From Chthonomonadaceae bacterium (GTDB lineage Bacteria > Armatimonadota > Chthonomonadetes > Chthonomonadales > Chthonomonadaceae), in NCBI GenBank assembly GCA_035650735.1, contig DASRGZ010000094.1, positions 1 to 58,466 of the forward strand: DNA of 58,466 nt, read 5' to 3'. Made by a program: the position numbers and the translations under genes. Positions 2,625 through 58,466 of the stretch are shown one piece after another. The notes beneath the pieces are model-generated. The model was not told where the DNA came from. It saw only the letters and a list, made by a program, of their open reading frames with translations, and did no database searches. The stretch's first letter is position 1, and every line of letters begins with the position of its first letter.

Positions 2625-3022
2625 GCCGGGCACTGAAAGTACCCGGCTCTAGGGCCTAACGGCCAAGCGTCCTGGCGGACGCACAGTAAAGCCAGGTTTT
2701 CCGTCCGAAGGACGGTTGGCGGCGCAGCCGCCCTCTAGACGGGTATTTTCCATGCCCGGCACGGATCAGAGGTTTTCAACCCCCGGCTCCAGGGCCTAAC
2801 GGCCAAGCGACTGCAAGGGACGCCGCTCAACGGTTCGCGGCTCGGCCTTGCGACTAGCGGACGCCCCCGTTGCGGCAGGTTCTTCCCGCTCTACGAAGGC
2901 AGCCACCTGCCGATAGGCCCGTTTTCCCGTCCGAAGGACGGTTGGCGGCGCAGCCGCCCTCTAGACGGGTATTTTCCATGCCCGGCTGGGATGCCGATCA
3001 GACGGGTCATTCATGGCCCGGC
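2625..3022. repeat. Cluster of MITE/REP-like family A elements (2625-2760, ~2770-2986, solo end 3000-3022)
   Basis: Imperfect ~23-bp terminal inverted repeats GCCGGGCA.TGAA..TACCCG.CT...AGACGGGTATTTTCCATGCCCGGC; homologous to 8149-8410 and 24733-24994. Confidence 0.8.
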
Positions 3023-8148: not shown

Positions 8149-8410
8149 CCGGGCCATGAATGACCCGTCTTATGGGCCTGCGGCCAAGCGACTGCAAGGG
8201 ACGGCGCTGCCACTGCTAGGGTCGGAACTACGCACGCTCGACTGCCAGGGACGCCGCTCAACGGTTCGCGGCTCTGCCTGGCGATCTCCGCCTGGCGATA
8301 CTCGCGCCTCTGCCTTGCGACTGGCGGACGGAACCTCTGGTTAGAGGCAGCGTCCGCCAGGACGCCTGGCGGCAAAGCCGCCCTACAGCCGGGTACTTTC
8401 AGTGCCCGGC
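8149..8410. repeat. Family A MITE-like element carrying three nested ~45-nt micro-elements
   Basis: Near-identical to 24733-24994; terminal inverted repeats; nested modules start at 8191, 8212 and 8241. Confidence 0.85.
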
Positions 8411-9751: not shown

Positions 9752-9951
9752 GGCCCCCACCCCTTTATCCCCTCCCCCAATTCTAGGGGAGGGGAGAGGA
9801 GAAGCCAGGGTTTGGTTCTGCCTGCGCAGGCAGAGAGTCTCGCCCACAAGGGTGTCGCCAGGTGTCGCCAGGCGGAGGGCTGTGGCAAGGCGGAGGCAGG
9901 GGCCGTAACCCTGCCGACCCTGGCAGTCCATTGTAGGGCCGACCCTAGCAG
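9752..9951. repeat. Family B REP-like palindrome plus nested micro-elements (9855-9951)
   Basis: CCCCCACCCC..CCTCCCC..GGGGAGG palindrome; minus-strand CTGCNAGGGTCGG...CCTNGC(G/C)A modules. Confidence 0.75.
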
Positions 9952-10033
9952 AGCCCCACAACGGCAGGGTTTAGCCTGCCGGGCCGGGGTGAAACGCTGT
10001 AGACGCGGAATCGCAAGAGCAGGAGGCACAGAC

Positions 10034-12447: not shown

Positions 12448-12522
<75 letters not shown>

Positions 12523-15542: not shown

Positions 15543-16637
15543 ATGGGTGTCCCGCCGGCGGATAACGGGCGCGCTCCCCTCCAGACAGATCAGGCGCTGC
15601 TCTGGGCGGCCCGGCGGCTGGAGGCGGCAGGCGTGGAAAGCCCCCGCTTTGAGGCCCAACTGCTGTTGGCGATGGCGCTGGGCGTCACTCGCAGCGCCGT
15701 CCTTGCCGGCCTGCATCCCCGGCTGACGCCGCCGCAGGCGCAGGAGCTGGAACGACTGGTTCGGGAGCGGGAGCGGCGCGTGCCGCTGGCCTACCTGCGC
15801 GGAACGCAGGAGTTCTACGGCCTGACCTTCCTCGTCAGCCCGGCCGTGCTGATTCCGCGCCCGGAAACTGAGCTGCTGGTCGAGTTCGCCCTGGAAAAGC
15901 TGGCCTCCTGCTCAAGGAAAGTCGGGGCGTCCTCCCGTTCTGGCCCTCACCCCCTGCCCCCGTCTCCCACGCTGCGGGAGAGGGGAAACGGAGAAGCCGG
16001 GTCCCTCCCTTCCCTCGTAGGGTCGCAAGGCGGAGGGGCGAACCGTTGTAGCCCCGACCCTGGCAGTGGGGGACGGGGGTTAGGTCAAACACGAAGGAAG
16101 GAAGCCGGGGGGTTAGGTCCAACGTTGGCCGATGTCGGCACCGGGAGCGGGTGCATCGCCATTGCGACACTGGCCCATTGCCTCCCGGCCCGCGCCGTCG
16201 CCTTCGATATCTCGGCGGACGCGCTGGCCCTGGCCCGGCAAAATGCGGCGCTCCATAACGTGGCCGACCGGCTGCGGTTCGCGCGGGCCAACTTGCTGAC
16301 GGGCGCAGCCTCGGAGCGTTTCGACTTCGTCGTCTCCAACCCGCCCTATATTCCGACCGCCGAAGTCGCCGCGCTGCAGCCGGAGGTGCGCGCGTATGAG
16401 CCGCATATCGCCCTGGACGGCGGCCCGGACGGCATGCAGTTTCAGCGAGGGCTGGCGCAGGGTGCTCTGCGCGCCCTGAAACCGGGCGGTTGGCTGGCCG
16501 TGGAGGTAGCGCTGGGACAGGCGGAAGCCGTCGCAAGCCTCCTCCGCAGCGCAGGGTTTTTAGAGGTTTCCGCCCGGCGCGACCTGGCGGGCATTGAGCG
16601 CCTCGTCTGCGGTCAGAAGCCGCCTAGCGGGGAGTAG
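15543..16637 (+). CDS. prmC: Release factor glutamine methyltransferase with ~70-aa repeat-derived in-frame insertion
   Basis: PLAYLRG, VLIPRPETE, DVGTGSGCIA, SNPPY, ALDGG.DG motifs; insertion at about 15905-16120. Confidence 0.96.
   Translation: MGVPPADNGRAPLQTDQALLWAARRLEAAGVESPRFEAQLLLAMALGVTRSAVLAGLHPRLTPPQAQELERLVRERERRVPLAYLRGTQEFYGLTFLVSPAVLIPRPETELLVEFALEKLASCSRKVGASSRSGPHPLPPSPTLRERGNGEAGSLPSLVGSQGGGANRCSPDPGSGGRGLGQTRRKEAGGLGPTLADVGTGSGCIAIATLAHCLPARAVAFDISADALALARQNAALHNVADRLRFARANLLTGAASERFDFVVSNPPYIPTAEVAALQPEVRAYEPHIALDGGPDGMQFQRGLAQGALRALKPGGWLAVEVALGQAEAVASLLRSAGFLEVSARRDLAGIERLVCGQKPPSGE
15944..16120. repeat. Family B REP-like element plus one micro-element (16023-16067) inside prmC
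   Basis: CCCTCACCCCCTGCCCCCGTCTCCC..GGGAGAGGGG..GAAGCCGGG; same family as the intergenic copies at 30650-30840 and 36095-36210. Confidence 0.85.
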
Positions 16638-24732: not shown

Positions 24733-24994
24733 GCCGGGCCATGAATGACCCGTCTCTAGGACCTGCGGCCAACCGACTGCAAGGGACGGCGCTGCCACTG
24801 CTAGGGTCGGGACTGGGCACGCTCGACTGCCAGGGACGCCGCTCAACGGTTCGCGGCTCTGCCTGGCGATCTCCGCCTGGCGACACTCGCCCCTCTGCCT
24901 TGCGACTGGCGGACGGAACCTCTGGTTAGAGACAGCGTCCGCCAGGACGCCTGGCGGCGGAGCCGCCCTACAGACGGGTATTTTCAATGCCCGG
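24733..24994. repeat. Family A MITE-like element with triple nested micro-element
   Basis: Near-identical copy of 8149-8410. Confidence 0.85.
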
Positions 24995-30394: not shown

Positions 30395-30845
30395 CAGACC
30401 TCACCCCCAACCCCTCTCCCTCGCAAGGAGAGGGGAGAGGCCCCCACCCCCGGCCCACTGCCAGGGTCGGGCCTACAACGGACTGCAAGGGTCGCGCCTG
30501 CCATGGTTGGGATCTGACAGAGGCGCAACTGCTGGAGAGCTTGCCGCCTCAACGAACTGCTAGGGTCGGCCCTGCCATGGTTCGGGCCACTGCCAGGGTC
30601 GGCCCTACAATGGTTCGCGCCTCCGCCTAGCGACACCTTGCCACAGCCCTCCGCCTCGCGCCCCCCAACAACAGGGGAGGGGAGAGCAGAAGCCGGGTTC
30701 TCTCCTTCCCTACTGTCCCTCCTCAATTCTAGGGGAGGAGAGAACAGAAGCCGGGTCACCCCCTTCCCTCGTAGGGTCGCGAGGCGGAGGGGCGAACCAG
30801 TGTAGCGCCGACCCTTGCCGTGGGGGACGGGGGATTAGGTCAAGG
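30395..30845. repeat. Family B REP-like cluster with multiply nested micro-elements (30457-30660; 30777-30821)
   Basis: Repeated ACTGCNAGGGTCG starts and CCTNGC(G/C)A ends inside C-rich/G-rich palindromes. Confidence 0.8.
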
Positions 30846-36094: not shown

Positions 36095-36210
36095 CCCTCA
36101 CCCCCTGCCCCCTCTCCCGGCGCTGCGGCAGAGGGGAACGGGGAAGCCGGGTCCCCCCCTTCCCTAGCGAGGGACGAGCGGGTAGGGAAGGGGGACGGGG
36201 GGGTTAGGTG
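36095..36210. repeat. Family B REP-like element lacking the micro-element (empty site)
   Basis: Minus strand GTCCCCC-TT-CCCTAC at about 36196-36182. Confidence 0.8.
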
Positions 36211-58275: not shown

Positions 58276-58466
58276 CTAACCCCCCGTCCCCCACTGCTAG
58301 GGTCGGCGCTACAACGGTTCGCGTCACTGCCAGGGTCGGGCCTGCAATGGACTGCCAGGGTCGGCAGGGTTACGGCCCCTGCCTCCGCCTTGCGACACCT
58401 AGCGACCCTCCCAGGGAAGGGAGTGATCCGGCTTCTGCTCTCCCCTCTCCCTGCAAGGGAGAAGGG
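58275..58466. repeat. Family B element with nested micro-elements (58293-58405)
   Basis: GTCCCCC[ACTGCTAGG..ACTGCCAGG..ACTGCCAGG..CCTTGCGA..CCTAGCGA]CCCTCC. Confidence 0.8.

Follow-up and report, generated by a model that had tools for sequence, protein, structure and literature searches.

How repeats of fewer than 50 bases move is an open question, and the locus at 8191-8320 of the DNA examined here raises it in a compact form. The whole stretch (the window, 58,466 nucleotides) is contig C94 of the Chthonomonadaceae source genome, G000, and an earlier note on it had described a unit of about 45 nucleotides that nests in itself and replaces a dinucleotide at its target. We followed this unit through the window, the rest of the G000 assembly (6.52 Mb, 63% G+C, 97.6% complete) and other genomes, including the relatives labelled G001, G010 and G019; the assemblies are incomplete, and the public runs consist of contigs only, which break at repeats. 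The unit proved to be a genuine micro-element that nests in itself, has clear bounds and follows an unusual junction rule; no mover was found for it. What it brings to the question is some 900 ends, at least a dozen site classes and a single net junction rule.

Copies, nests and fold of the unit

All the copies and nests listed in the earlier note were found in the window, where the left motif occurred 17 times against 1.97 expected, a count reached by 0 of 100 shuffles; the right 8-mer by itself was not significant (23 occurrences against 16.2). The nest at 8191-8320 (forward strand) is three deep and sits in host A, a flank repeat of a Y1 gene. Its proposed parse was confirmed: an inner unit of 44 nt (8241-8284) lies within a middle unit (8212-8240 and 8285-8298), itself contained in an outer unit (8191-8211 and 8299-8320), the latter two being 43 nt each after removal of the inserts, with sites after unit positions 21 and 29. 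Host A also carries a simple 44-nt unit at 2810-2853 and has an empty allele at 2661-2681 (both on the forward strand), in which TC at 2670-2671 is the pair missing from filled alleles. A second host, B, a DUF559-type flank repeat, is empty at 36182-36196 (reverse strand), TT being the missing pair, so that empty and filled sites both occur in the window, as had been claimed. Simple 45-nt units in host B were located on the reverse strand at 16023-16067 and at 30777-30821, the latter being a variant with an ACG start. The former had been listed as a single copy and is present as such; in addition, it belongs to an in-frame repeat insertion inside prmC (15543-16637, forward strand, open across 364 aa).

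The remaining nests exist as well, with some corrections to the bounds originally proposed. The nest at 24776-24905 on the forward strand, which ends at 24905 and not at 24906, is three deep with the same architecture as 8191-8320. On the reverse strand, the nest spanning 9855-9952 starts at 9952, with T replacing A; it has an inner unit at 9883-9927, an extra right end and an outer left end starting with TCT, the class with a net loss of 4. Two further forward-strand nests are located at 30457-30661, in a DUF559-type host (inner unit 30589-30633), and at 58293-58405, in host B (inner unit 58351-58395), the last showing three left ends but two right ends. The sole Rfam match within the window was one tRNA gene at 12448-12521.

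Within the nest at 30457-30661, a 36-nt duplication (30476-30511 and 30550-30585, forward strand) flanks a 38-nt foreign insert (30512-30549), and the whole arrangement (30476-30585) probably arose when a CRISPR spacer was integrated off target, within the nest. Across G000, 84 of 108 two-copy direct repeats with unique filler have a period of 60-75 nt. In the 64-69 period class (57 repeats), the commonest duplication is 30 nt long and matches the array on contig C93 (period 65-67), and smaller classes of duplication plus filler fit 28+33 and 36-38+35-38. A second match in G000 was missing for 69 of 72 fillers, and 4 of the 72 overlapped unit nests, against 1.6% expected. These duplication-filler repeats are likewise likely to be off-target spacer integrations, for which Nivala 2018, as cited in the available text of 10.1101/148544, provides a comparison.

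The genome-wide search suggested in the earlier note was run on G000. Counting by sequence pattern returned 394 simple units (290 of 45 nt, 103 of 44 nt and 1 of 42 nt), with 0 matches for the reversed pattern used as a control, and an internal motif returned about 920 left ends, a few of which are chance matches. Crudely called ORFs contained 30 of the 465 unit clusters, the copies being mostly intergenic. The unit pattern was matched in 3 of 60 relatives. Among 67 genomes of the class, the unit model found 10 matches in G001, 7 in G010, one weak and chance-like match, and a doubtful one in G019, which is identical over 141 nt to a G000 nest and sits at a contig end. A scan of 400 genomes of the phylum gave one match, without the stem, and viral contigs gave 0 matches. 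Three of the four non-relative matches in the genome scan look like chance when read in context, the fourth being in Hyphomonadaceae. Metagenomes contributed 133 loci with the unit, 95 of which are G000 itself; 37 chosen non-G000 loci yielded 29 unit sequences, 28 of them missing from G000, with new complementary inner stems and self-nests of their own.

Two odd copies in G000, at C191:1353 (beside an IS605-like end) and C35:33267, showed neither an Rfam match nor a second copy. C191 also has one non-coding stretch, some 200 nt long (L005:330-540), which contains a divergent unit and terminates in a hairpin end that we take to be IS605-like; it too showed no Rfam match and no second copy. C191 (L005:180-328) shares with about 40 other contigs a further family of palindromic repeats, about 150 nt long, with CTAG ends and often located at contig ends.

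The unit is gene-less, 44-45 nt long, and has two stems. The outer stem of 6 bp joins positions 4-9 with 38-43 and the inner stem of 5 bp joins positions 13-17 with 29-33, with a 3x4 internal loop between them, a variable apical loop of 10-11 nt and unpaired feet, ACT and GA. In 27 chosen units, 93% of cells were paired and 42 were compensatory, values as high being found in 0 of 500 shuffles, a control that kinship inflates. The covariation is carried by the inner stem, whose pairs are Watson-Crick in 179-201 of 203 distinct units. The partial co-variation of the ends recognised in the earlier note is real but weak, pair 6-41 being Watson-Crick in 93 of the 203. When DNA parameters were used, the bottom strand folded better in 164 of 203 distinct units, and stem mismatches favoured bottom-strand G-T (49 vs. 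23). On the same strand, the internal loop, whose positions are partly fixed by the search pattern, could form tandem G-A pairs. Single units fold weakly in comparison with shuffles (z from -2.1 to +0.2), and no Rfam match was returned for the unit. CT occupies unit positions 2-3 in 840 of the 920 left ends of G000.

Host repeats and the junction rule

Hardly any units were found outside other short repeats or copies of the unit itself. Hosts A and 13 correspond to the flanks of stand-alone Y1 (RAYT-like) genes in G000, G001 and G010, and hosts B, 8 and 9 flank stand-alone DUF559 genes in G001, G010 and G019 (L246-L256) as inverted hairpin repeats. The DUF559-flanking hairpin repeats are also abundant in G000, whose assembly has no stand-alone DUF559 gene. 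Since the flanks of both Y1 and DUF559 genes act as hosts, the unit parasitises repeats of at least two unrelated systems. By living on the flanks of other selfish genes, it shows parasitism at a third tier. A second Y1 gene of G000 (C166:12500-12950; L002) appears frameshifted near its start, and the unit uses the flanks of this gene as a host too.

The pair that is lost was placed, for six host repeats, in the 5' stem arm at 3-5 bp from the base of the stem, in agreement with the earlier suggestion that the element targets hairpin DNA. The suggestion holds in part, as the unit uses only one of two symmetric arms (43:0, 33:0, 46:0, 31:0, 6:0 and 46:7) and the self sites lie outside a 5' arm.

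The 30 clusters overlapping ORFs are mostly located in spurious 5' extensions, and several are in-frame inserts. The prmC gene of the window scored 252 bits against a cut-off of 199 and contains about 65 extra repeat-encoded residues relative to G019. Housekeeping proteins such as PrmC acquire in-frame loops from the unit. In G001, prmC has a repeat insertion at this same position. Unit-bearing repeat clusters were also observed in frame in open ORFs, namely prmC, an FAD oxidoreductase, a KDO transferase and a Peptidase_S11 ORF (window 15543-16637; L276, L277 and L278), and as C-terminal read-through in a Na/Ca exchanger and a G3P acyltransferase.

The junctions were examined in 266 distinct flank contexts of G000, 60 of which have an exact empty allele elsewhere in the genome, the other 206 having none. 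The net change in the 60 contexts was -2 in 52, -3 in 6 and 0 in 2. Among units holding one insert, 91 of 112 are 42-43 nt long, corresponding to the unit length minus 2, and a net -2 was returned by each well-matched class (A, B, 8, 10, 12, the second Y1 flank, CCGGCCT and the self sites 21, 25, 29 and 33); the class 9 junction lies in a C run and is ambiguous. Exceptions are one site class that loses 4 (44 left ends) and one that loses 3 (5 copies). Of the 378 left-end spacings that are close, 351 correspond to self-insertions after positions 21, 25, 29 and 33 (24 and 32 in 44-mers). Filled and empty states of the same orthologous locus were not found, so that every "empty" allele is a paralogous repeat.

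The two bases following the junction are often changed too. In counts that contain inherited copies and are not insertion events, an empty CG (or TG) to the right of the junction becomes CA (192/201, 144/148 and 11/11) and an empty CC becomes TC (40/41, 38/43 and 47/58), with the exception of host B, where CC remains CC in 34 of 38, while CT, CA and GG are unchanged (43/43, 31/33 and 48/48). Within each site class the right-flank pair hardly varies, and it tracks the target class, not the unit subtype, which leaves a carry-over of donor flank unsupported. Avoidance of a methylation site as the cause of the CG-to-CA change found no clear support either, CGACG being present at 0.88 of expected. 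The claim that the unit replaces a dinucleotide is thus sustained in that junctions show no target duplication and a net -2 instead, in many unrelated hosts; since the next two bases are also altered in a target-dependent manner, and two classes lose 4 or 3, the replacement of 2 nt has to be read as a net statement.

Candidate enzymes and rival explanations

A copy flanking a transposase or recombinase gene, which the earlier note had proposed to look for, was not found: the unit model gave 0 matches in 46 loci around Y1, cas1, GIY-YIG, DUF559 and IS110 genes from incomplete assemblies, a set that includes 27 loci around Y1 genes among 28 scanned together. No gene-carrying long copy was detected in G000, where the five candidates measured at most 248 nt, and 30 short unit-bounded intervals inspected by eye contained no mobile gene. 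G000 has one cas1 and three Y1 matches, of which two are stand-alone genes on C166 and the third is an IS605-type remnant; DUF559 occurs there solely within a 1561-aa ORF, as one of its domains. Y1 genes are present in each of the four genomes with a clear unit match, which says little, as Y1 occurs in 40 of 68 genomes of the class. The absence of an enzyme is in turn weak evidence, since G000 also lacks the DUF559 gene whose flanks abound there. The only transposase near non-G000 copies (43 of 60 ORFs scanned), IS630, was discarded as the mover, as it is itself inserted into the CTAG of the unit. An IS630-family element and a related short element, inserted at CTAG inside the unit, were observed at L102:514-1290 and on C55 of G000.

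The unit is probably a mobile element of very small size whose mover is encoded elsewhere. Our preferred reading, with a probability of about 0.4, is that of a gene-less, non-autonomous double-stem hairpin that a single-strand enzyme able to read structure inserts in trans, nicking the target at points 2 nt from each other. Three features, namely the irregular fold that is conserved, the strand bias and CT at positions 2-3, suggest an enzyme such as TnpA-REP, which according to the available text of PMC3333891 requires an irregular hairpin or stem mismatch and cuts C|T. One nick in a single-stranded target cannot delete bases, so that one-nick HUH strand transfer would not by itself give the 2-nt deletion, and a shared-core crossover needs matching ends, whereas AC and GA differ; a two-nick geometry would therefore be the simplest. 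The enzyme would read the fold, probably on the bottom strand, and nick the target on opposite strands 2 nt apart, each unit end being joined to one nick. Host repair would then trim two 2-nt flaps, leaving the 2-nt loss, and the right-side transitions may arise during repair or while strands pair briefly. A large share of the copies could derive from filled host repeats that spread and from nests that recombine with one another. The proposed mechanism gives no account of the CG-to-CA and CC-to-TC changes, nor of the 4-nt spacing of the self sites. That the enzyme is HUH/Y1-like, as proposed in the earlier note, is a guess, the counter-points being that the right junction is not C|T and that C|T is not found consistently where the target is cut. 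A standard RAYT is disfavoured by the absence of a GTAG/GGAG foot, the lack of linkage to the genes and the loss of 2 nt.

More tentatively, the data might reflect an undescribed insertion chemistry, in which a structure-reading enzyme splices a hairpin into the arm of another hairpin, deletes two target bases and edits the next two, and which would explain very small mobile repeats. If an enzyme able to insert a 45-base fold without duplication exists, it would represent new biochemistry and a possible short-insert tool. The junction record and the compensatory variants in relatives narrow the possible chemistry and supply donor and target oligonucleotides for enzyme tests.

It seems doubtful that the unit is handled instead by a small stand-alone nuclease (DUF559/Vsr-like, Ssn-like or of another family) nicking both donor and target, with repair copying the hairpin and leaving the 2-nt loss and the transitions as scars. 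The DUF559 genes flanked by hosts B, 8 and 9 in G001, G010 and G019 favour this explanation, and the abundance of those repeats in G000 indicates that partner genes can be absent from this assembly. The 5' end of the bottom strand reads TGTC, AGTC, CCTC or CGTC in 324 of 654 junctions (TGTC 249, CCTC 31 and CGTC 6), resembling CGTC REPs and Ssn motifs as presented in the available parts of PMC3733652 and PMC11893778; however, half of this tag is target-derived, and GATC or GGTC is found at 233 of the 654 junctions. The published SRM motif was matched by 0 of 394 units, no unit occurs beside DUF559 genes, and a short (about 95-aa) GIY-YIG gene is missing from the four genomes, which contain only ORFs of 382-697 aa with no unit nearby.

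The constant -2 might also stem from shared ancestry, if true insertions were few and most copies came from the spread of filled hosts and gene conversion between units. Such a history would fit the use of a single symmetric host arm, the wide recurrence of identical compound nests, the many nests with unmatched ends and the nearly fixed right-flank pair of each site class. It is nevertheless unlikely, as the same net change is found in at least a dozen site classes with unrelated flanks, which lack the flanking homology required by conversion, and other organisms show additional sites along with self-nests that are particular to them.

A serine or tyrosine recombinase, or an IS110-type enzyme, could exchange a 43-nt circle at a 2-nt crossover, mismatch repair then overwriting the target pair. 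The 2-nt register and the lack of duplication agree with this scheme, a target already ending in AC can accept a clean 43-nt insert (1 copy), and IS110 elements target REPs, as described in the available text of PMC12288879. We consider it distinctly improbable, because the ends AC and GA are not a common core, target-derived pairs are seldom retained at either end, and searches for a circle junction or an excision footprint found none. IS110 genes were absent from G000 (0 matches) and G001, and none of the 11 recombinase ORFs examined in G000, which has 9 tyrosine and 4 serine recombinase matches, showed unit-like ends at the gene termini. Finally, insertion of a bacterial SINE-like RNA by target-primed reverse transcription, which in R2 elements deletes 2 target bases, would suit the compensatory structure, the strand bias and the 2-nt target deletion but is very unlikely, given 0 RVT_1 matches in the 97.6% complete G000, no match to the unit in Rfam, an orientation relative to transcription that is only weakly biased (119 vs. 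89) and foreign inserts in nests that are spacer-type and not template jumps.

Comparison with known small repeats

Literature searches outside subscription journals returned no description of this 44-45-nt element. The unit works like a REP-class non-autonomous hairpin, yet fails tested features of REP/REPIN, Ssn/SRM, DDE MITE, IS110 MITE and IS200/IS605 elements. It resembles REP, BIME and REPIN sequences with TnpA-REP in consisting of hundreds of mostly intergenic imperfect hairpins with no terminal repeats (PMC3333891, PMC6006769 and PMC3116915, in their available text), and REP/RAYT systems also in the presence of Y1 genes in the genome and of CT at the left boundary. In contrast to them, the unit is not a doublet, does not flank Y1 genes, inserts into REP-type flanks and causes a net target loss. 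A GTAG/GGAG tetranucleotide is absent from its foot, which reads GACT, CACT or TACT on the top strand and TGTC, GATC, GGTC and others on the bottom one. CGTC REPs similarly have no transposase partner and occur in frame in genes (PMC3733652, available sections). The bottom strand of the unit often begins with TGTC, AGTC or CCTC adjoining a stem, which may be compared with the tag of CGTC REPs and with Ssn motifs (NTS-SRM, available sections of PMC11893778); the unit differs from both in its variable and half target-derived tag, in matching no SRM, in the lack of an ssnA-size gene and in having two stems instead of one.

The IS110-family MITE MITEPpu9/ssr9 is likewise non-autonomous and REP-targeting, with no classical duplication (PMC12288879, in the text available), whereas the unit lacks an identical core dinucleotide at both ends and has many unrelated targets, and no IS110 gene occurs in G000. 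The earlier note was right in considering the signature unlike that of DDE MITEs, as there are neither target-site duplications nor terminal inverted repeats but only a 6-bp subterminal stem with unpaired ends. Non-autonomous IS200/IS605 elements (PATE) insert 3' of a fixed target tetra- or pentanucleotide without loss, whereas the left flanks of the unit vary widely and the net change is -2.

The closest kind appears to be that of the small dispersed repeats (SDR) of cyanobacteria. The SDR of Nostoc and its relatives, described by Elhai et al. in 2008, are reportedly very small gene-less repeats showing self-nesting and compensatory structure. The unit is SDR-like in being shorter than 100 nt, gene-less, provided with fixed ends and nested both in itself and in other repeats. 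Very small gene-less modules, precise insertion and no known enzyme are thus common to the two. SDR5, of 21 nt, inserts precisely into HIP1, according to the available text of papers citing the SDR work (PMC4390886, PMC13756078 and PMC2884548); compared with it, the unit is twice as long, has two stems, resides in Chthonomonadaceae and loses 2 target bases.
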